64,000 nt of DNA from Actinomycetes bacterium (lineage in GTDB: Bacteria > Actinomycetota > Actinomycetes > DATJPE01). Below the pieces are notes generated by a model. That model had not been told where the DNA came from. It made no database searches and worked only from the letters and a program-made list of their open reading frames with translations. The stretch is from contig JANPBY010000004.1 in assembly GCA_031430645.1 (NCBI GenBank), positions 4,337 to 68,336 of the forward strand, in the 5' to 3' direction. A program made the translations under genes and the position numbers. Numbering within the stretch: position 1 is the first letter of the stretch; the number at the start of each line of letters is the position of its first letter. This document shows, piece after piece, positions 1,136 through 46,950 of the stretch.

Positions 1136-1897
1136 TCAGGTCGGCACGGGTGCCAGTGGGTCGCCGACAGTGCCGGCTGCCACGTCGAGTGGTCCCTGCG
1201 CCAGCCGGGTCACCTGAGGTGGGACCGGCGGCGCCAAGTGAGCCACCAAACGCAGCGCGCTGAGCACGTCGTCGGGTCTTACGGACGGTGTGACGTGCCG
1301 CAGGACCACGTCCAGTATCGCACACGGAGGCTCCCCCACCCCCGAAACGGCGCCTGAAACCTCCGCTCGCCCGATGAGCACGAGCACCGGCCCGCGGGCA
1401 TCGAAGGAGCGGATGCCGTTTTTGGTGAGCCGCTCGACCAGCACCTCCTCCGCCGCCAGGAACGTGCCGACCGCAAGCCTTACGTCGTCGAGATCGGCGC
1501 CCGGCAACCGGATCTCCCACGTCGAGGCTTCCAGCAGGTCGGCCAGCGCACCGGGTGCCGCTTCGACGACCTCGACGATGTCGAGCCCTGGGGGCAGCGC
1601 CTTGTCGAGGGAGGCCCGGAGTCGGTCCGGGTCGCAGCGCTGGGCCACGCCGATCTCGAGGTACTCCGCCTCGCTCGCGGTGCCGGTGGGAGCGGCGTTT
1701 GCGTAGGAAATCTTCGGGTGCGGGGAGAAGCCGGCCGAGTAGGCCATGGGTACGGCCGAGCGGCGCAGCGCGCGCTCGAAGGCACGGGCGAAGTCCCGAT
1801 GCGAGGTGAACCGAAGGCGGCCCCGCTTGGCGTAGCGGATCCGCAGTCGCTGGACGGTGGGCGGCGGGGGTGGACCGTCGGGGGTACGAGCCGGCAT
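1136..1897 (-). CDS. TIGR03936 family radical SAM-linked protein (DUF2344)
   Basis: QRLRIRYAKRGRLRFTSHRDFARAFERALRR...YSAGFSPHPKISYANAAPTG..SEAEYLE signature; ATG 1897 overlaps the upstream stop (TGATG). Confidence 0.9.
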   Translation of the reverse strand: MPARTPDGPPPPPTVQRLRIRYAKRGRLRFTSHRDFARAFERALRRSAVPMAYSAGFSPHPKISYANAAPTGTASEAEYLEIGVAQRCDPDRLRASLDKALPPGLDIVEVVEAAPGALADLLEASTWEIRLPGADLDDVRLAVGTFLAAEEVLVERLTKNGIRSFDARGPVLVLIGRAEVSGAVSGVGEPPCAILDVVLRHVTPSVRPDDVLSALRLVAHLAPPVPPQVTRLAQGPLDVAAGTVGDPLAPVPT

Positions 1898-2469
1898 CAG
1901 CGCGCGGCCAGCGCAGCGGCGATCGCGGCCTCTGCGGCGGCGGCGTCCTCGTCCGGACACATCGGCATGAAGTCCACCCACATCGCCAGCATGGATCCGC
2001 GCAGCTGGAGGGCGCCGAAGGGCCGCGGCATGAACCAGAGGTGGAAGTGCTCGCCGCCATCGCCCCACCGGGCGACGTGCACACGGCCGACTCCCCCGAG
2101 CCCCAGGATCGCCCGCTCGATCCGGGCGGTCAGCGGGCCAAGCTCGAGAAGCAGCTCGTCGCTCAGATCGGCGAAGGAGTCGTGGTGGGCCCGCGTCTCG
2201 AGCAGGACTTGGCCCAGCAGCTCCGTGGGACGGTACGGGCGCAACCGCCAGTTTCGGTCGGACCACAGGAAGTCTGAGTCGGGGGCCGCACACGAACGGC
2301 AGCCCTGGCCGCCCTCCCCTGAGCGAGGCGGCTCCTCATCTGCGAGTGGGAGCAGTTCCTTCACCCGTACGTCTCCGGTGAAGGGGAACCACGGGTCGTC
2401 GAGCAGCTCTGCGGGGACCGGCGGCCGTACGGCTCCGTGCGCGGTCAGCACCACCCGCTCGTCGGTCAT
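1897..2469 (-). CDS. HIT-like superfamily protein
   Basis: CRSC zinc motif near the N-terminus; VHVARWGDGGEHFHLWFMPRP resembles an HxHxH triad with the third His replaced by Trp; ATGA-coupled to the radical SAM gene. Confidence 0.65.
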   Translation of the reverse strand: MTDERVVLTAHGAVRPPVPAELLDDPWFPFTGDVRVKELLPLADEEPPRSGEGGQGCRSCAAPDSDFLWSDRNWRLRPYRPTELLGQVLLETRAHHDSFADLSDELLLELGPLTARIERAILGLGGVGRVHVARWGDGGEHFHLWFMPRPFGALQLRGSMLAMWVDFMPMCPDEDAAAAEAAIAAALAAR

Positions 2470-4451
2470 GCGCTCTGCGGTGATGGGGCCAGCGCCACCT
2501 CGAGGGCGGGCGAGGGCACCACCGTCAATGGAAGCAACGTGATGCCGGTGGGGCCGACCTGGATGTCGGTGCCCATCTGGGGGCACACACCGCAGTCGAA
2601 GCACGGGGTCCAGCGACAGTCGTCGACCTCAACCTCTGACAGCGCATCCTGCCAGTCCTCCCAGAGCCACTCTTTGTCCAGGCCGGAGTCGAGGTGGTCC
2701 CAAGGAAGCACCTCGGACTGCTCGCGCTCCCGGGTGGTGAACCACGCGACGTCGACGCCGGTGTCTGCTAAACCTCGATCAGCGGCGGCCATCCAGGCAT
2801 CGAAGGAGAAGTGCTCGCTCCAGCCGTCGAAGCGCGCACCCTGCTCCCAGACTCCTCGGATGACAGCGCCGATCCGTCGGTCGCCGCGTGACAGAAGTCC
2901 CTCGACAGTGCCGGGCTTGCCGTCGTGGTAGCGAACGCCGATCGCACGGGCGAACTGCTTGTCCGCCCGGATCGCCTCACGGAGCTTGGCCAGCCGGGCG
3001 TCGGTGGTCTCGTGATCGAGCTGAGCGGCCCACTGAAACGGCGTGTGCGGCTTAGGCACGAAGCCACCGATCGAGACGGTGCAACGGATATCGCGGCTAC
3101 CACTGGCCTCGCGGCCGGCGCGGATGACGTTCTTCGCCATCTCGGCGATCTGCAGGACGTCCTCGTCTGTCTCGGTGGGGAGACCGCACATGAAGTACAG
3201 CTTCACCTGACGCCACCCGGCGGCGTACGCCGTGGTGACGGTGCGGATTAGGTCTTCCTCACTGACCATCTTGTTGATGACGCGACGCAGGCGCTCGGAT
3301 CCGCCTTCCGGCGCGAAGGTCAGGCCGGAGCGGCGGCCGTTGCGCGAGAGCTCGTTGGCGAGGTCGACGTTGAACGCATCGACCCGGGTGCTGGGCAGCG
3401 ACAGGCTCGTGTTGGTGCCCTCGTAGCGGTCGGCGAGGCCCTTGGCGACCTGGCCGATCTCGGAGTGGTCGGCGCTGGAGAGGCTGAGCAGGCCGACCTC
3501 CTCGTAGCCGGACGCGGCGAGCCCGCGCTCAACCATCTCGCCGATGCCGGTGATAGAGCGCTCGCGAACCGGGCGGGTGATCATGCCGGCCTGGCAGAAC
3601 CGGCAGCCGCGCGTGCAACCGCGGAAGATCTCGACGCTCATCCGCTCGTGGACGGTTTCGGCCAGCGGGACGAGCGGCTGCTTGGGATAGGGCCACTGGT
3701 CGAGGTCCATCACCGTGTGCTTGGCGACCCGCCACGGGACACCCGGCCGGTTGGGAGCCACTCGACGGATCCGGCCGTCGGGCAAGTAGTCGACGTCATA
3801 GAACTGGGGGACATAGACCCCCCCGGTCCGGGCCAGCCGCAGCAACAGTTCCTCGCGCCCGCCGGGACGCCCTTCGCTCTTCCAGGCTGCCGTCACGTCG
3901 GAGATCTCGAGCACCGCCTGCTCGCCATCACCGAGCACGGCTGCGTCGATGAACTCCGCGATTGGCTCCGGGTTGAAGGCTGAGTGACCCCCGGCAATCA
4001 CGACGGGGTGGTCCACTGTGCGGTCGGTGGCGCGCAGCGGGATGCCCGCGAGGTCGAGCGCCGTGAGCATGTTCGTGTAGCCGAGCTCAGTGGAGAAGCT
4101 GATGCCGAACAGATCGAAGTCACCGACTGGACGGTGCCCGTCGACGGTGAACTGCGGCACCTGGTGCTCACGCATCAGGGCTTCGAGGTCGGGCCAGACG
4201 GCGTACGTGCGCTCCGCGAGAGTGTCGGGGCGCTCGTTGAGCACTTCGTACAAGATCATGACGCCCTGGTTGGGCAGCCCGACCTCATAGGCATCGGGAT
4301 ACATCAGCGTCCACCGGACCATGGCGTCGCCATCGCCCCAGGGCTTCACTTGGGCGTTCAGCTCACCGCCGACGTACTGAATCGGCTTGGTCACCAGCGG
4401 CAACAGCGCCTCGAGGCGCGCGAACACCGAGTCACCCGACCGCTCAACCAT
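2466..4451 (-). CDS. TIGR03960 family B12-binding radical SAM protein
   Basis: KPIQYVGGELN, YPDAYEVGLPNQG, CTRGCRFC (CxxxCxxC), C-terminal CRWTPCFDCGVC. Confidence 0.92.
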   Translation of the reverse strand: MVERSGDSVFARLEALLPLVTKPIQYVGGELNAQVKPWGDGDAMVRWTLMYPDAYEVGLPNQGVMILYEVLNERPDTLAERTYAVWPDLEALMREHQVPQFTVDGHRPVGDFDLFGISFSTELGYTNMLTALDLAGIPLRATDRTVDHPVVIAGGHSAFNPEPIAEFIDAAVLGDGEQAVLEISDVTAAWKSEGRPGGREELLLRLARTGGVYVPQFYDVDYLPDGRIRRVAPNRPGVPWRVAKHTVMDLDQWPYPKQPLVPLAETVHERMSVEIFRGCTRGCRFCQAGMITRPVRERSITGIGEMVERGLAASGYEEVGLLSLSSADHSEIGQVAKGLADRYEGTNTSLSLPSTRVDAFNVDLANELSRNGRRSGLTFAPEGGSERLRRVINKMVSEEDLIRTVTTAYAAGWRQVKLYFMCGLPTETDEDVLQIAEMAKNVIRAGREASGSRDIRCTVSIGGFVPKPHTPFQWAAQLDHETTDARLAKLREAIRADKQFARAIGVRYHDGKPGTVEGLLSRGDRRIGAVIRGVWEQGARFDGWSEHFSFDAWMAAADRGLADTGVDVAWFTTREREQSEVLPWDHLDSGLDKEWLWEDWQDALSEVEVDDCRWTPCFDCGVCPQMGTDIQVGPTGITLLPLTVVPSPALEVALAPSPQSA

Positions 4452-4492: not shown

Positions 4493-4552
4493 GTTGATCT
4501 TGAGAGATGTACGGGCGACACGCACGCGCATCGCGCTTCTCTCAAGATCAAC
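4493..4552. repeat. Palindromic hairpin element, left copy (GTTGATCTTGAGAGA-N30-TCTCTCAAGATCAAC)
   Basis: Perfect 15-bp inverted repeat 4493-4507/4538-4552 with a 30-nt spacer; shares the 13-bp arm TGATCTTGAGAGA with the 5601-5662 copy. Confidence 0.92.
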
Positions 4553-4641
4553 CTGGTTGCGGTTCATCAACAGGGGCCGGACTATCCACAAGACCAGCCG
4601 GGAGACTCGGCGGCCCAGCCGCAGCGCCGCACTGTGGACGC

Positions 4642-5588
4642 ATGGCCGGTCCACCGGAAGCCGCAGCGCACGCGCTTGCGTCTAGGCAACTCGGCCTGAT
4701 CACGGCCAAGCAGCTGGCGCGGCTCGGGCTAAGCCGGGGCCGGCTCGCTCATCGGCTCACCACCGGCGCCACACGATCCGTCCTCCCGGGTGTCTACCTC
4801 TTCGATGCCTGGTTACACGCCGAGACTTGGGACGGTCTGCCCTTGGATACCCGGGTGCGGGCAACGGTCCTGTTCCACGGGCCGCAGGCTGTGCTCTGCC
4901 TCGACGCGGCGGCTCGGCTCCTGGGGATCGGCGGAGTGGGCTTGGACTGCGGCGTCATTCATGTCCAGCTGCCACCCGGCACGGAGCGTCATCAAGTGTG
5001 GCGGGCGTGATGATCCACACCCGACTGCTCGCCGCTGATGAAGTCATGATCGTCAACGGGATCCCCGTCACGACACCACAGCGCACCGTCCTCGACCTTG
5101 TGCTCAGTTCAGACCGACTGCGCGCCGTCTCCATCCTGGACTCCGCGCTCAATGGCAAACTGATCGACCCGGCGGACATTCCGGACATGAGGCGGAGGGG
5201 GTGGCGGCGGCGGGGCGCGGCCATCGCCCGGGGGTGGTGGGACCTCGCCGACGGCCGAGCCCAATCACCCCTCGAGACCGACGTACGGCTGATCGCGACT
5301 GACGCTGACATGCCCCCTGACGAACTCCAGTACCCCGTGCGAGATTCATGGGGGACGCTACTCGGGTACGGCGATCTCGCGTGGCTACGGCCGGGTCGCC
5401 GCACGCTCATTGCCGAAGCCGACGGCAAAGAGCCCCACAGTCGGCCGCAGGCGCTGTTCCGGGACCGCCACCGGGCCAATGACTTCATCACCACCGGAGA
5501 CGTGGACATCGTCCGGTTCACTGCTGCCGACACCTATCGCAAGGCGTACATCGTCAGCCAACTCAGGCGGCTCCTAGGCCGCGAGTAA
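4642..5588 (+). pseudogene. AbiEi-antitoxin-like N-domain + DUF559/Vsr-like PD-(D/E)xK endonuclease, split by a frameshift near 4996-5010
   Basis: 5' part MAGPPEAAAHALASRQLGLITAKQL...VLPGVY stops at 5010. 3' frame continues VAGVMIH...GIPVTTPQRTVLDL...AQSPLETDVRL...GYGDLAW...LIAEADGKEPH...RDRHRANDF. Removing one TG from GTGTG (4996-5000) restores a single 314-aa ORF. Confidence 0.75.
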
Positions 5589-5600
5589 GCCCAAAATAGT

Positions 5601-5662
5601 CGCTGATCTTGAGAGAAGCACGCGCGGTACGGCGCGGCATTGTGCATCTCTCAAGATCAGCG
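5601..5662. repeat. Palindromic hairpin element, right copy (CGCTGATCTTGAGAGA-N30-TCTCTCAAGATCAGCG)
   Basis: Perfect 16-bp inverted repeat 5601-5616/5647-5662 with a 30-nt spacer; inverted relative to the left copy as judged by the spacer ends. Confidence 0.92.
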
Positions 5663-5669
5663 GGACGTC

Positions 5670-5704
5670 GGGGCTAAGGCGGGGCGAGGCGGGGCGGGGC
5701 GGGG
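5670..5704 (+). repeat. G-tract repeat (five GGGG runs), potential G-quadruplex
   Basis: GGGG at 5670, 5681, 5691, 5696 and 5701, abutting the rodA stop. Confidence 0.6.
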
Positions 5705-6895
5705 TCAGGCGTAGCGGCGCATGTGGACGTTCAACAACAGACCTACGGCCATGAGGGAGGCAAACATCGACGTCCCGCCGTAGGAAACGAAGGGCAACGG
5801 CACGCCCGTCATTGGCATGATGCCGAGAGTCATCCCGATGTTCTCGAATATCTGGAACGTGAACCAGCAGACGATCCCGGTCGCTACGAGCCGGCCGAAC
5901 ATGTCGTCGGATCGCATCGCGATCCGGCAGGCCCGCCACAACACGATGCCGAGCAGCACGATGATGCCGACCGCTCCGACAAAACCGAGCTCCTCCCCTG
6001 CCACCGTGAAGATGAAGTCGGTCTGCTGCTCAGGGATGAACTTCCCGTTCGTCTGGGTGCCCTGGAAGAGGCCCGACCCAGTGAAGCCTCCGGAACCGAT
6101 CGCGATCCGGGCCTGCTTGAGCTGGTAGCCGGCGCCGCCTGGGTCGAACTCGGGGTTGGTGAAGGCAGCGAAGCGGTTGATCTGGTAGCTCGACAGGACT
6201 CCGGCCTGAATCGCGAGCCCTGCTCCCAACGCCCCGAGGGCGACCAGCCCGGCGATCCATGGAGCTGGAGTTCCAGCCACCGCAAGGATCCCCAGCACGA
6301 GGAAACCGATGATGATCGTCGTACCGAGGTCGGGCTGCAGCATGATCAACGCGATGGGCACGGCCGCCACGAGCAGGGCCAATCCCACATCGACCATGCG
6401 CGGCTGGTCCTCCGCATCGCGCTTCTCGGACAAGATCATCGCCAGGCCGACACACAGCGCGACTTTGGCGAACTCCGAGGGCTGCACCGAGAAGCCGCCC
6501 GGCAAGACGATCCAGGAGTGCGAGCCGTTGACAGTGCTCCCAAGCGGCGAGAGCACGACAATGAGCCCGATCACCGAGGCGATGTAGACAAACGGCGCAT
6601 AGGCCCGCAGCATCCGGTAGTCGAAGAGCGCGATCGCGGCCGCGAGCACCAGCCCAATCGAGATGTTGAGCACGTTGCGCTTGAGGTAGGTCATCGGGTC
6701 GACGCCGGCATCGAGCAACCGTCCGCGGGTCGCGGAGTAGACGAGCAGCGTGCCGAGCGAGCACAGGGCGAGCACAGCGAGCACGAGGACCCAGTCGAGT
6801 CGACGGAGTACTGACTCGCGATCGGCCGCACGCGAGGCGAAGCCTCGTCGCCTGGACTGCTCGCCGAAGTTCGGGACCGGATAGCCGTAGGTCAT
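5705..6895 (-). CDS. rodA: Rod shape-determining SEDS protein RodA
   Basis: Multi-TM; GSHSWI..GGFSVQPSEFAK, QPDLGT, IPEQQTDFIF, GVPLPFVSYGG; ATGA overlap with mrdA. Confidence 0.93.
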   Translation of the reverse strand: MTYGYPVPNFGEQSRRRGFASRAADRESVLRRLDWVLVLAVLALCSLGTLLVYSATRGRLLDAGVDPMTYLKRNVLNISIGLVLAAAIALFDYRMLRAYAPFVYIASVIGLIVVLSPLGSTVNGSHSWIVLPGGFSVQPSEFAKVALCVGLAMILSEKRDAEDQPRMVDVGLALLVAAVPIALIMLQPDLGTTIIIGFLVLGILAVAGTPAPWIAGLVALGALGAGLAIQAGVLSSYQINRFAAFTNPEFDPGGAGYQLKQARIAIGSGGFTGSGLFQGTQTNGKFIPEQQTDFIFTVAGEELGFVGAVGIIVLLGIVLWRACRIAMRSDDMFGRLVATGIVCWFTFQIFENIGMTLGIMPMTGVPLPFVSYGGTSMFASLMAVGLLLNVHMRRYA

Positions 6896-9093
6896 AAGCC
6901 ACCACCCCTGCGCCAACCAGCGGCTGCAGCAGCTGAAGTGGAGGAAGCAGACGGGTCGGGCGCCGGAGTCGACGGGGTGGCCGGCGCGCTGGGCTGGAGC
7001 ACCACACCGTCTGAGCCGATCTTGGGCAGCCTCTTCGGCGGTTTGCCATTGGGAAGTACGGCTTTCGCGAGATCGAGCTTGTTGCCCGAAATGCCATACA
7101 ACGCCTCGTAGATCGTCCGAACTCCGGGGCCAGAGGTACCTGACCCCGTACCGCCCTGACTGACCATCATCACGATGGCGTACTGGGGGTCGTCATACGG
7201 CGCGAACGAGGCGAACCACGACGTGTCGTCCTTGCCGAAGACCTGTCCCGAACCAGTCTTTGCCGCCACCTTGATGGGGAAGGTCGATCCGAAGACCCCC
7301 GCAGCGGTGCCCCCAACCGTCACACCTCGGAGCGCATCCTGAAGGAAGGCGATGGTCGCAGCACTCGCGGGCAGTTGGCCCTCCTTGCGGGGCTTGAACT
7401 CCTTGACGACCGTGCCGTCCGGCGCGATCACAGCCTTCGCGACCTGTGGGGTCCACAACGTCCCGCCGTTTGCGATCGCGGCGTAGACGCGGGCCACTTG
7501 AAGCGGAGTGACGAGAGTGTCCCCCTGCCCGATCGCGAAGTTGACTGCGTCGCCCCCGCGGTACTGCCAACCATCGATGCAGTTCTCCGCCGCGATGGCC
7601 TTCAACGTCGCGGCTCGAGCCCGATCCTTCTCCTCCGGATAGCCCGTCTTCCCTCGCTCGCACCACGCGTCCTTGAGCTCGTCATACGTCGCCTGCCGGT
7701 CGGCGCGCGAGACGATCGCCCCTGCTGTCTCCGACGGCAGGTCGATCCCCGTCTTGGCGCCGTACCCAAACCCGCGCGCGGTGTTGACGAAATATTCGTT
7801 GGTCTTGCCCTTGGGGTCGTTTCCCCCGTCGCGCAACCAGCTCTCGTACCCCAGCTTGTAGAACACGGTGTTGCAGGAGACCGCGAGCGCCCGCTTCAGC
7901 GAGATGTCGCCGTAGGCACCGGTCTCGAAGTTCTTCTTGCTCACGTTTCCGACCTGGTAGGTCGAAGGACAGGGGTAGGTGCCGTTCAGGTTGTAGCCGG
8001 CCTTAGCGGCAGCAGCGGTGGACACCACTTTGAAGGTGGAGGCGGGAGCGAAGCCCGCACTCATGGCACGCGAGATCAGCGGAGTGTTGGCCTTCTTGCT
8101 TGTCAGTCGGTCGTACTGCTTCTGCGAGATCCCACCCACCCAGACTCCGGGGTCATAGCTCGGGTACGACGCCATCGCGACGATCCGACCGGTCTTGACA
8201 TCCATGACCACGACGGCGCCGGAGTCCGCCTTGTAGGAGTCACCCTTGTAGGTCTCACCTGCGCGGGCCGCCTTGATGCGATCAACCAGGGCCTTCTCAG
8301 CAATGGCCTGAACCTTGGCGTCGATGCTCGTAACCAGATAGTTGCCGGCGACGGGGTCGGTCTCGCCCACGGTGCCTGTGACACTGCCATCCCTGTCAAC
8401 CGCGAGCTGCTTCACCCCTGGCGTGCCGCGAAGGTAGCCGTCATAGACCTGCTCCAGCCCGGCCTTGCCGATCACGTCGCTCGCCCGAAGCTCAGGGCCG
8501 CCCTCGGCTTTGGCGTTCTCGACGTCAGTGTCGAGCACCGGACCGATGTAGCCGAGCATGTGCGCCGCGTTGGCCTTAGCCGGCGCGGGGTACTCGCGCA
8601 CTGCTTCGAGGTCGGCGCTGACCCCGGGGTAGTCCTCACGCCGTTCGAGCACGGTCAGGGCGACCTCGGTGCTCACATCGCGCGCCACCGGGATCGGCTG
8701 GTAGGGCGACCCGTACCAGCACACCCCGGGCTTTGCTCCCTCGGTCCCGCACAGCTGGACCCGATCGTTGATCTCAGCGAAGTCTGTCTTCAGCAGCCCG
8801 GCCAGCCTCGCCACGACAGCATCGCCGTCGTCGTCCTGCTTGCTCAGGGCCGTCCGGTCGACGGTCACGACGAGGGTCGTCCTGTTTTGGACCAGGGGGC
8901 GACCGCGATCGTCCAGGATCAGCCCGCGTACGGCCGGGGTGATGACCTCGCGTACCCGGTTCTCGGTCGCGGCCTGTTGATAGGTATCCCCCGCGATCAC
9001 CTGGAGATACCAGAGCCGGCCGACCAAGGTGGCGAGGAGTGAGAGCACGAGCACCTGTAGCACGAGCAGACGCAGGCTGGACCGCTCACTCAC
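6892..9093 (-). CDS. mrdA: Penicillin-binding protein 2
   Basis: N-terminal TM, RGLILD, catalytic motifs STFK (SxxK), SCN (SxN), KTG; in the mre cluster. GTG start at 9093. Confidence 0.93.
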   Translation of the reverse strand: MSERSSLRLLVLQVLVLSLLATLVGRLWYLQVIAGDTYQQAATENRVREVITPAVRGLILDDRGRPLVQNRTTLVVTVDRTALSKQDDDGDAVVARLAGLLKTDFAEINDRVQLCGTEGAKPGVCWYGSPYQPIPVARDVSTEVALTVLERREDYPGVSADLEAVREYPAPAKANAAHMLGYIGPVLDTDVENAKAEGGPELRASDVIGKAGLEQVYDGYLRGTPGVKQLAVDRDGSVTGTVGETDPVAGNYLVTSIDAKVQAIAEKALVDRIKAARAGETYKGDSYKADSGAVVVMDVKTGRIVAMASYPSYDPGVWVGGISQKQYDRLTSKKANTPLISRAMSAGFAPASTFKVVSTAAAAKAGYNLNGTYPCPSTYQVGNVSKKNFETGAYGDISLKRALAVSCNTVFYKLGYESWLRDGGNDPKGKTNEYFVNTARGFGYGAKTGIDLPSETAGAIVSRADRQATYDELKDAWCERGKTGYPEEKDRARAATLKAIAAENCIDGWQYRGGDAVNFAIGQGDTLVTPLQVARVYAAIANGGTLWTPQVAKAVIAPDGTVVKEFKPRKEGQLPASAATIAFLQDALRGVTVGGTAAGVFGSTFPIKVAAKTGSGQVFGKDDTSWFASFAPYDDPQYAIVMMVSQGGTGSGTSGPGVRTIYEALYGISGNKLDLAKAVLPNGKPPKRLPKIGSDGVVLQPSAPATPSTPAPDPSASSTSAAAAAGWRRGGGL

Positions 9094-22373: not shown

Positions 22374-22473
22374 GGACGTGGCGTGAGGTCCGCGGTCCCG
22401 CAGAGTTCGTAGGGAGCTCGCCGTAGGCGGCGGGTGTAGAACTTGAAGGGAGTGCGGACCTCACGCCACGTCC
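22374..22473. repeat. Dispersed palindromic (REP/REPIN-like) element, copy 1
   Basis: Perfect 20-bp inverted repeat 22374-22393/22454-22473 around a 58-nt core (22396-22453) that is 55/58 identical to 46875-46932. Confidence 0.88.
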
Positions 22474-46815: not shown

Positions 46816-46950
46816 GGCACGACGAGGGGCCGAACTCCCGCAGAGTTCGTACGGAGCACGACGAGGGGCCGAACTCCCGCAGAGTTCGTAGGGAGCACGC
46901 CGAAGGCGGCGGGTGTAGAACTCGAAGGGAGTTCGGCCCCTCGTCGTGCC
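46816..46950. repeat. Dispersed palindromic (REP/REPIN-like) element, copy 2, with a tandem-duplicated left arm
   Basis: 35-bp direct repeat at 46817-46851 and 46856-46890 (period 39); 23-bp perfect inverted repeat 46856-46878/46927-46949; core 46875-46932 is 55/58 identical to 22396-22453. Confidence 0.9.

Follow-up and report, generated by a model that had tools for sequence, protein, structure and literature searches.

A palindrome-framed AbiEi-like nuclease gene and its dispersed hairpins in Actinomycetota

The window analysed here, a 64,000-nucleotide stretch of contig JANPBY010000004.1 from an Actinomycetes bacterium, holds between rodA and a radical-SAM gene a cassette consisting of one gene, for a protein with an AbiEi-like winged helix and a Vsr/DUF559-like PD-(D/E)xK nuclease, and two inverted copies of a palindrome that frame it. 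We found that hairpins and gene are conserved as a unit, which is vertically inherited at the rodA locus and has also reached other loci, and that the cognate pairing of gene and palindrome holds for many unrelated palindrome types. Our preferred explanation, to which we attach a little more than even confidence, is a partnership of the REPtron kind, with a protein that recognises its cognate palindromes and probably cuts them as well. The source genome (G000; 3.16 Mb, 67% G+C, 230 contigs, the window lying in its contig C4) was compared with the other genomes of its order, G001 to G006, which brings the order to seven species genomes in all; G001 belongs to a different genus from G000.

The hairpin-gene-hairpin unit

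Two hairpins of the form TGATCTTGAGAGA-N30-TCTCTCAAGATCA, with 13-bp arms and 30-nt spacers, lie inverted to each other at 4495-4550 and 5604-5659, and the 13-mer arm has only these four occurrences in the whole 64-kb window. Both palindromes fold as single strands far better than shuffled sequences (z -4.5 to -8.1; none of 200 shuffles did as well). A covariance model trained on 39 members of the hairpin family scores the left copy at 53.3 bits on the plus strand versus 36.1 on the minus strand, and the right copy at 54.6 bits on the minus strand versus 42.9 on the plus strand. An earlier note on this DNA had described a nuclease gene bracketed by two hairpins with shared arms and spacers of exactly 30 nt, facing opposite ways, and the coordinates and strand scores bear it out. 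The note had also seen the same T:T mismatch at the foot of both stems. That is true of the two window copies, but 38 of the 39 family members have a T:A pair there; T:T is specific to G000, and the analogy drawn with the fixed mismatches of HUH enzymes falls. The features of the locus are as follows.

4493..4552, plus strand: left framing palindrome GTTGATCTTGAGAGA-N30-TCTCTCAAGATCAAC, forward orientation, 15-bp arms, 100% complementary
5601..5662, minus strand: right framing palindrome CGCTGATCTTGAGAGA-N30-TCTCTCAAGATCAGCG, reverse orientation, degenerate loop motif
4642..5010, plus strand: cassette gene, N-terminal part with the AbiEi-like winged helix, ending beyond the frameshift at a premature TGA (5008-5010)
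4996..5000, plus strand: frameshift site GTGTG, most simply read as two extra bases relative to the intact G001 and G004 orthologues
4998..5588, plus strand: cassette gene continued in the shifted frame, C-terminal part with an AbiEi-like C-domain and a Vsr/DUF559-like PD-(D/E)xK nuclease; stop TAA at 5586-5588
4582..4590, plus strand: DnaA-box-like 9-mer CTATCCACA, past the left palindrome and ahead of the gene start, two mismatches to the actinobacterial consensus TTGTCCACA
4632..4640, minus strand: second DnaA-box-like element, CTGTGGACG on the plus and CGTCCACAG on the minus strand, immediately before the ATG
2466..4451, minus strand: radical-SAM gene (Radical_SAM_N2 and Radical_SAM), start placed at the ATG at 4451 by alignment with relatives
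5705..6916, minus strand: rodA (FTSW_RODA_SPOVE), neighbour of the cassette

The left palindrome, with the loop motif GGGCGACACGC on the plus strand, lies 41 nt upstream of the radical-SAM start codon and the right one 42 nt downstream of the rodA stop codon, the cassette gene running against both neighbours. Both stems are AT-rich relative to the genome and are followed by ACCTGGTTGC and GCGGGACGTC. No T-run follows either hairpin on either strand, so they are not canonical intrinsic (Rho-independent) terminators.

The same junction in the relatives shows the unit in several states. G001 has hairpin, intact gene (336 aa) and hairpin, with the left copy forward and the right one reversed as in G000. 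G004 has an intact gene and a left hairpin, with a decayed right side. In G005, half of the left hairpin is fused to the C-terminal half of the gene, with the right hairpin after it; the deletion has an end within the left hairpin. A plain spacer of about 66 bp, with neither gene nor hairpin, separates rodA and the radical-SAM gene in G003 and G002, and in G006 the junction holds an unrelated gene and again no cassette gene or hairpin. Where one genome has the cassette and another lacks it, the difference is bounded by the outer hairpin ends. Two metagenome contigs, L102 and L105 (66% and 47% protein identity), have the same junction and the same inverted hairpins, L102 with a compensatory stem variant, GATCTTGAAAGA/TCTTTCAAGATC, in both its copies. 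Of the two relatives at 51% and 46% identity, the cassette of L104, beside groES, has the same inverted framing, and that of L106, beside ppa, has its upstream hairpin, the contig ending just after the gene. Inverted framing was read from the loop motif in L102, L104 and L105 and from the model score in G000 and G001. The direction of the cassette gene relative to rodA and the radical-SAM gene is identical in all six loci, and there is no adjacent recombinase.

These comparisons uphold the earlier note's proposal that gene and hairpins form a unit, the gene-less G003, G002 and G006 carrying no hairpin at the site. The note would have given up its proposal had homologues lacked flanking palindromes; homologous genes are framed by them. 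Its picture of a mobile unit does not hold at the rodA locus, where the cassette has been inherited vertically across two genera and has not moved recently. A search for empty sites and target duplications, which it had suggested, gave empty sites in relatives but no clear target-site duplication. Intergenic DNA is too diverged from G000 to give exact boundaries of the empty sites, and the comparison of G003 with G004 served instead (see below). The note had also stated that the cassette disrupts neither neighbour. It does lie between the two genes, but given the gap of about 66 bp in empty-site relatives, it splits what is probably a single operon of rodA and the radical-SAM gene. As the note had said, no AbiEii-type gene lies beside the cassette gene, whose neighbours are the radical-SAM gene and rodA only (groES or ppa at the other loci in relatives).

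Two local features of these loci were also recorded. The stretch from the right hairpin to the rodA stop codon (window positions 5663-5704) has a G-rich run, GGGGCTAAGGCGGGGCGAGGCGGGGCGGGGCGGGG. The rodA-side junctions of G001 and G005 are likewise G-rich (GGGCGGAGGGCGCGGGAGCGGGCGGCGG and GGGGAATGGACGAGCGGGCTGGACGG), with C-rich tracts upstream of the rodA stop instead in the empty-site genomes G003 and G002. At the N-terminus of the G004 orthologue (L029, around 1750-1830, minus strand), a tandem repeat of ATGCCCGCCGCCTCC units encodes MPAAS/MSAAS four times; it lies in the open frame upstream of the conserved part, and the other orthologues do not have it.

As for the protein, the N-terminal part in the window is 70% identical to the G004 orthologue and 48% to that of G001, and the C-terminal part 67% and 55%, respectively. 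The AlphaFold model of the G001 orthologue (pLDDT 92.7) matches the AbiEi antitoxin 6y8q_A over its N-terminal two thirds (Foldseek E 7e-6; TM 0.56 on the target). The AbiEi_4 matches of the window copy (E 4.9e-5 for the frame 4642-5010) and of its two closest orthologues lie under the Pfam cut-off. The last third of the model is an alpha/beta nuclease, with strands in 231-265 flanked by helices; it bears a weak Foldseek resemblance to TnsA (E 0.1) and has a weak profile match to the DUF559 structure 3hrl (E 0.57). Residues E215, D248, E264, D266 and H271 are invariant in 35 homologues, as is the D-R-x-R-x-N motif. All five are present in the window copy, where the SPLE, GDLAW, EADG..H and FRDRHRAND motifs are intact. 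Pfam finds no DUF559 in the window copy, and the two closest orthologues stay below thresholds (MTES_1575 in G001, E 0.0085, below cut-off). Homologues at about 40% identity carry PF04480 or PF18741, and those of Micromonospora and Catellatospora bear AbiEi-domain or DUF559 annotations. The earlier assignment to DUF559 has its basis in the homologues and the conserved E...D...ExD...H motif, not in a Pfam match of the window copy itself.

Framing by unrelated palindromes

The link between gene and palindrome extends well beyond the window. A hairpin-first scan of G000 gave 661 hairpins but only five loci where two that share an 11-mer lie 0.4-2.5 kb apart; four of the five bracket a member of the cassette protein family, each with a different palindrome. 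Paralogues in the order, at 30-37% identity, do not lie beside the GATCTTGAGAGA hairpins to which the window's copies belong; three of them in G000 are framed by palindromes of their own. In the wider class, 53 of the 401 genomes, belonging to 35 of the 174 genera, contain GATCTTGA-N34-52-TCAAGATC; a genome can have as many as 110 copies, and the reversed control gives close to none. These palindromes are about 55 nt long, and their ends are fixed while the interior is variable yet self-complementary. In 14 genomes of the class that are rich in hairpins, paired palindromes, either of the GATCTTGA type or unrelated to it, enclose at least 14 of the 30 homologue loci that match best. A cognate framed gene of the GATCTTGA type is present in at least nine of these 14 genomes, and none was seen in G124. 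Dispersal is also the rule for four of the five other types tested, with roughly 12-30 sites each. Mycolicibacterium homologues, at about 30% identity, are framed by a family of 62-nt palindromes that has solo copies elsewhere. Framing was seen in every orthologue examined, and across the family at least eight unrelated palindrome types are involved.

The DnaA-box-like motifs recur as well: TTGTCCACA with at most one mismatch lies 5' of 9 of 19 cassettes and 3' of none, and it occurs in 2.1% of background windows. The motifs in the window are weaker matches than this.

The hairpins as dispersed repeats

The consensus of the window's hairpin family is GATCTTGAGAGA-T-(inner stem of 5-6 bp)-GCGACACGCCG-(6-8 variable nt)-(inner stem)-A-TCTCTCAAGATC. 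Compensatory changes occur within this stem (CG versus GC in 22 versus 13 copies), with covariation above that of all 500 shuffles. Inner stems are genome-specific, orthologous framing copies included: TCCACG/CGTGGA in G004, TGCACG or TGTACG in G005 and TGCAGGG/CCCTGCA in G001. A search of Rfam with the hairpins returned only sub-threshold microRNA look-alikes and thus no known RNA family. Integron attC sites were considered and discarded: some copies have GTT...AAC ends, but G000 and G001 have not conserved them, and the copies lie scattered one by one.

With the covariance model, we counted 24 sites in G004, 18 in G005, 7 in G001, 5 in G000 (whose total is put at 5-6), 2 in G002, at most 1 in G003 and 0 in G006. 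The cassette gene is intact in G004 and G001, truncated in G005, frameshifted in G000 and absent from G002, G003 and G006. Across the seven genomes the trend is towards more hairpins where the cassette gene is present, and the close pair G004 and G003 contrast sharply. Nevertheless, the co-occurrence of repeat and gene is imperfect. The count for G000 includes the framing pair, and its three or four further copies lie on other contigs, none adjoining a homologue. Solo copies are intergenic, typically 10-50 nt past a stop codon; their strand relative to the upstream gene is split 13 to 6, a bias that we judge too slight for any conclusion. Wherever solo hairpins are paired 0.8-4.6 kb apart (in G004, G005 and G001), they enclose ordinary genes rather than further cassettes.

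Recent insertion could be examined in G004. The joined flanks of its solo sites were searched in four congeners, and all three testable sites proved contiguous, that is, empty, in other congeners; these solo sites are insertions specific to the lineage with the intact gene. At L040 the insertion reads as a clean indel of about 65 nt, where a CAA(C) overlap is the only, and ambiguous, sign of a target duplication, and another of the tested sites may have left a remnant in G003. G003 is about 90% identical to G004 in the flanks of the solo sites, yet it lacks the gene and is essentially without hairpins. Of the 24 copies in G004, 22 have the G004-specific stem and are identical over about 48 nt. 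Directly after GACACGCCG, however, a segment of 7-8 nt differs in nearly every copy (L035-L055), and such localised variation in recent-looking copies cannot be produced by neutral drift. The segment is unrelated to the flanking DNA: its 5-mer matches number 21, against 24.4 expected, which eliminates copying from the target as its origin.

One site that varies among the genomes is that of L036 in G004, downstream of a conserved gene. G004 has a solo GATCTTGAGAGA hairpin there and G003 (L146) another of the family's cassettes, which comes with CTTCACCCAC...GTGGGTGAAG palindromes of its own. G005 (L147) and G006 (L148) carry unrelated inserts of 1.5 and 0.8 kb, and G002 (L149) carries nothing. 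The site looks like an insertion hot spot.

Other palindromes of G000 were noted in passing. The 10-mer CGACACGCCG occurs 73 times in the genome, compared with 17 times for the reversed motif and a mean of about 30 for shuffled motifs, and it forms the core of three palindrome families that are otherwise unrelated, one being the GATCTTGAGAGA family. The second, CCCCAACTTCACGCGCGACACGCCGTCCTCACGCGTGAAGTACC, has about 25 copies, often as inverted doublets about 126 nt apart, and frames the C129 paralogue. The third, a 70-nt perfect palindrome CCCCGCTGAGTGTGACG...GCGACACGCCGCGTGTCGC..., has about 20 copies. Example sites with this core are C129:24618-24688, C129:25774-25842, C2:27131, C2:27257, C113:55686-55760 and C18:5949. 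A further family, distinct from the cassette hairpin, is represented by an 80-nt palindrome that the scan found at C4:26720-26799 and, in similar form, at C224:4417-4496; it coincides with a dispersed palindrome at window positions 22374-22473 and 46875-46932 that has been described as having a conserved core and unrelated stems.

Readings of the module and their meaning

Apart from REP/RAYT, which is essentially proteobacterial, we know of no established pairing of a host-resident enzyme gene with a dispersed palindromic repeat of its own. The cassette resembles these REPtrons (RAYT with the repetitive extragenic palindromic sequences REP or REPIN, in Proteobacteria) in several respects. In both, a single-copy, vertically inherited gene is framed by two inverted palindromic repeats, and the repeat is also dispersed in extragenic DNA. 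Several cognate gene-repeat pairs can occur in one genome, the repeat sequence co-varies with the enzyme lineage, and repeat numbers differ sharply between close relatives. However, the cassette enzyme is an AbiEi-like winged helix with a Vsr/DUF559 PD-(D/E)xK nuclease, not an HUH/Y1 enzyme, its palindromes are longer (about 55-70 bp with stems of 13-30 bp), DnaA-box-like motifs precede the gene, and the taxon is Actinomycetota. PF01797 (Y1/RAYT) is absent from all seven genomes of the order, with matches in control genomes, which rules out a RAYT or IS200 enzyme as a hidden mobiliser. The earlier note's description of the cassette as REP-tron-like therefore fits, with a single-copy syntenic gene, inverted framing, dispersed solo copies and no Y1 enzyme.

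Other known systems resemble it in part. The model superposes on AbiEi of the AbiE type IV toxin-antitoxin systems (Streptococcus agalactiae AbiEi, 6y8q; Mycobacterium tuberculosis Rv2827c), and AbiEi proteins are repressors that bind inverted repeats near their own gene. The cassette differs in having no AbiEii nucleotidyltransferase, in the nuclease domain fused at the C-terminus and in repeats that lie on both sides of the gene and genome-wide. The E...D...E-x-D-G..H...D-R-x-R-x-N core is shared with Vsr/DUF559 (PF04480) and REase_MTES_1575 (PF18741). Vsr, however, works on its own as a repair enzyme that nicks at mismatches, and it goes with a cytosine methylase, whereas the nuclease domain of the cassette is tethered to an AbiEi-like DNA-binding module and paired with palindromes. 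Hairpin ends, short non-autonomous intergenic palindromes and lineage-specific bursts recall IS200/IS605 elements and palindrome-associated miniature inverted-repeat transposable elements (MITEs), and the arms of solo palindromes are the outermost arms of the cassette. In contrast to IS200/IS605, the cassette is a single open reading frame without TnpA or TnpB, its ends being inverted rather than on one strand. No target duplication could be made out, and the cassette gene itself hardly moves. For Correia elements, an example of such MITEs, we know of no dedicated transposase. A literature search found no paper linking DUF559 or AbiEi to flanking palindromes, or describing the module. The present study adds the cross-genus synteny with empty sites, the contrast in insertions between G004 and G003, the hairpin-first genome scan and the class-wide GATCTTGA superfamily.

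In the REPtron-like partnership that we favour, the module would consist of a gene for an AbiEi-like winged helix and a Vsr/DUF559 nuclease, with DnaA-box-like motifs before it and its own palindromes of about 56 bp around it. The winged-helix part would recognise the conserved palindrome ends (GATCTTGA/TCAAGATC). The interior would need only to be self-complementary, which favours an extruded hairpin or cruciform as the form recognised. The nuclease would nick or cut at the palindrome, and host repair or replication would then copy, homogenise or move the palindromes. Fixed ends around a freely co-varying interior suggest that the folded form matters and that the ends are read sequence-specifically. 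We infer that reading would naturally fall to the AbiEi-like module and the effector role to the fused nuclease, and that the protein binds and cuts the palindromes and has a causal role in their spread. As for G000 itself, its unit is most likely a decaying relic with a gene copy that is probably dead, because the gene is frameshifted, there are only 5-6 partly degenerate hairpins and the loop of the right one is degenerate.

Several observations weigh against this partnership. G005 keeps 18 well-preserved hairpins with only a C-terminal remnant of the gene, G002 has two hairpins and no gene, and none of the 18 GATCTTGAC-type hairpins of G124 lies beside any of its five homologues. The correlation across seven genomes is a small sample confounded by phylogeny. 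At the rodA locus the cassette is vertically inherited, with no recent movement. M. senegalense and M. porcinum have their framing copies in direct orientation, although another Mycolicibacterium species has them inverted. Some solo sites are common to species and even genera (G005 L060 and G001 L073; G004 L055 and G005 L056), with perfectly conserved stems in unalignable flanks; such old sites could reflect selection at the level of the host, for instance on transcript ends, rather than maintenance by an enzyme. Binding and cleavage are themselves what we infer. Moreover, a PD-(D/E)xK nuclease alone cannot, as far as we are aware, carry out strand transfer, and we know of no precedent for the propagation of repeats by such an enzyme.

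The three main explanations overlap. One alternative to the partnership, which we consider rather improbable, is a self-contained regulatory or selfish cassette. Its palindromes would serve as operator and insulator of an autoregulated AbiEi-like repressor-nuclease, the nuclease would have another role, in defence or repair, and solo copies would be either leftovers of lost cassettes (recombination of the framing copies, in the manner of solo long terminal repeats) or transcript-end elements kept by the host. The AbiEi fold of the N-terminal two thirds suits this view, since AbiEi proteins are known to repress by binding inverted repeats, as does the position of the left palindrome and the DnaA-box-like motifs in the promoter region. 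The location of solo copies just past stop codons, the age of those kept across genera, the end of the G005 deletion within the left hairpin, the different family cassette of G003 at the L036 site and the hairpins that G005 and G002 have in the absence of an intact gene, and G124 away from its homologues, are in keeping with it too. Nevertheless, an operator accounts for one upstream site, not for the downstream copy at nearly every family member, nor for the 20-110 dispersed copies. The palindrome interior co-varies freely and only the ends are fixed, which a duplex operator does not need. The three G004 insertions of about 65 nt show no trace of the gene, and their sites are empty in four relatives; they thus do not come from cassette decay at those sites. 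Finally, the missing T-runs do not fit canonical terminators.

Less probable still is an autonomous mobile cassette, the whole unit transposing or homing with its inverted hairpins as terminal repeats, and the solo hairpins being MITE-like derivatives mobilised in trans. The inverted framing in G000, G001, L102, L104 and L105 would be expected of such an element, and the unit is found at three different loci, with presence and absence bounded by the outer hairpin ends. Solo copies insert in a lineage with an intact gene, and the nuclease domain faintly resembles TnsA. Yet each genome has a single copy of each type, and synteny at the rodA locus spans two genera, which makes movement of the whole unit rare at best. 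In addition, no target-site duplication can clearly be read, no strand-transfer enzyme is encoded, and some Mycolicibacterium loci have direct framing copies. We find it most improbable that generic REP-like or terminator hairpins happen to surround an orphan gene, or that inverted repeats serve the programmed inversion of the gene. Family hairpins do occupy 3' intergenic regions at many places, among them that of the radical-SAM gene in G004 and G005, but coincidence is contradicted by the recurrent framing with at least eight unrelated palindrome types and by the hairpin-first scan of G000. The one trace that the literature search brought up is a row in a table of a published paper, where 'DUF559 domain-containing protein' is enriched among predicted inversion targets, with an odds ratio of 14.3 (PMC9881135). 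Inverted repeats framing the gene could be the cause of that enrichment; the uniform gene orientation at all six loci and the lack of an adjacent recombinase speak against inversion in our case.

A broader form of the partnership is more speculative, and we advance it as a tentative possibility. AbiEi-Vsr (DUF559) proteins might be the dedicated enzymes of an unrecognised, phylum-wide class of REP-like palindromes in Actinomycetota, including mycobacteria. Each paralogue would recognise the fixed ends of its own palindrome of about 55 bp as an extruded hairpin or cruciform and cut it, and host repair would copy, homogenise or re-insert it. The 7-8-nt segment beside GACACGCCG in G004 would then be a processing scar.

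The module follows the logic of REP/RAYT with an unrelated enzyme, and it is abundant in actinobacteria, with several cognate pairs in the 3.2-Mb genome of G000 alone. Such palindromes break short-read assemblies, and inside operons, as here with rodA and the radical-SAM gene, they may affect expression. Even if the link between protein and palindrome is not causal, the strict framing of genes by their own palindromes is a rule still in need of explanation and useful for annotation. A causal link would account for where many intergenic palindromes of actinobacteria come from and provide a function for a very large family annotated as 'AbiEi antitoxin domain' or 'DUF559'. It would also reveal a nuclease-based route of repeat propagation and offer a source of sequence-programmable hairpin- or cruciform-specific nucleases. 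Should the phylum-wide reading prove true, these genes and their palindromes would be a domesticated or selfish replicator that spreads DNA with neither transposase nor recombinase.

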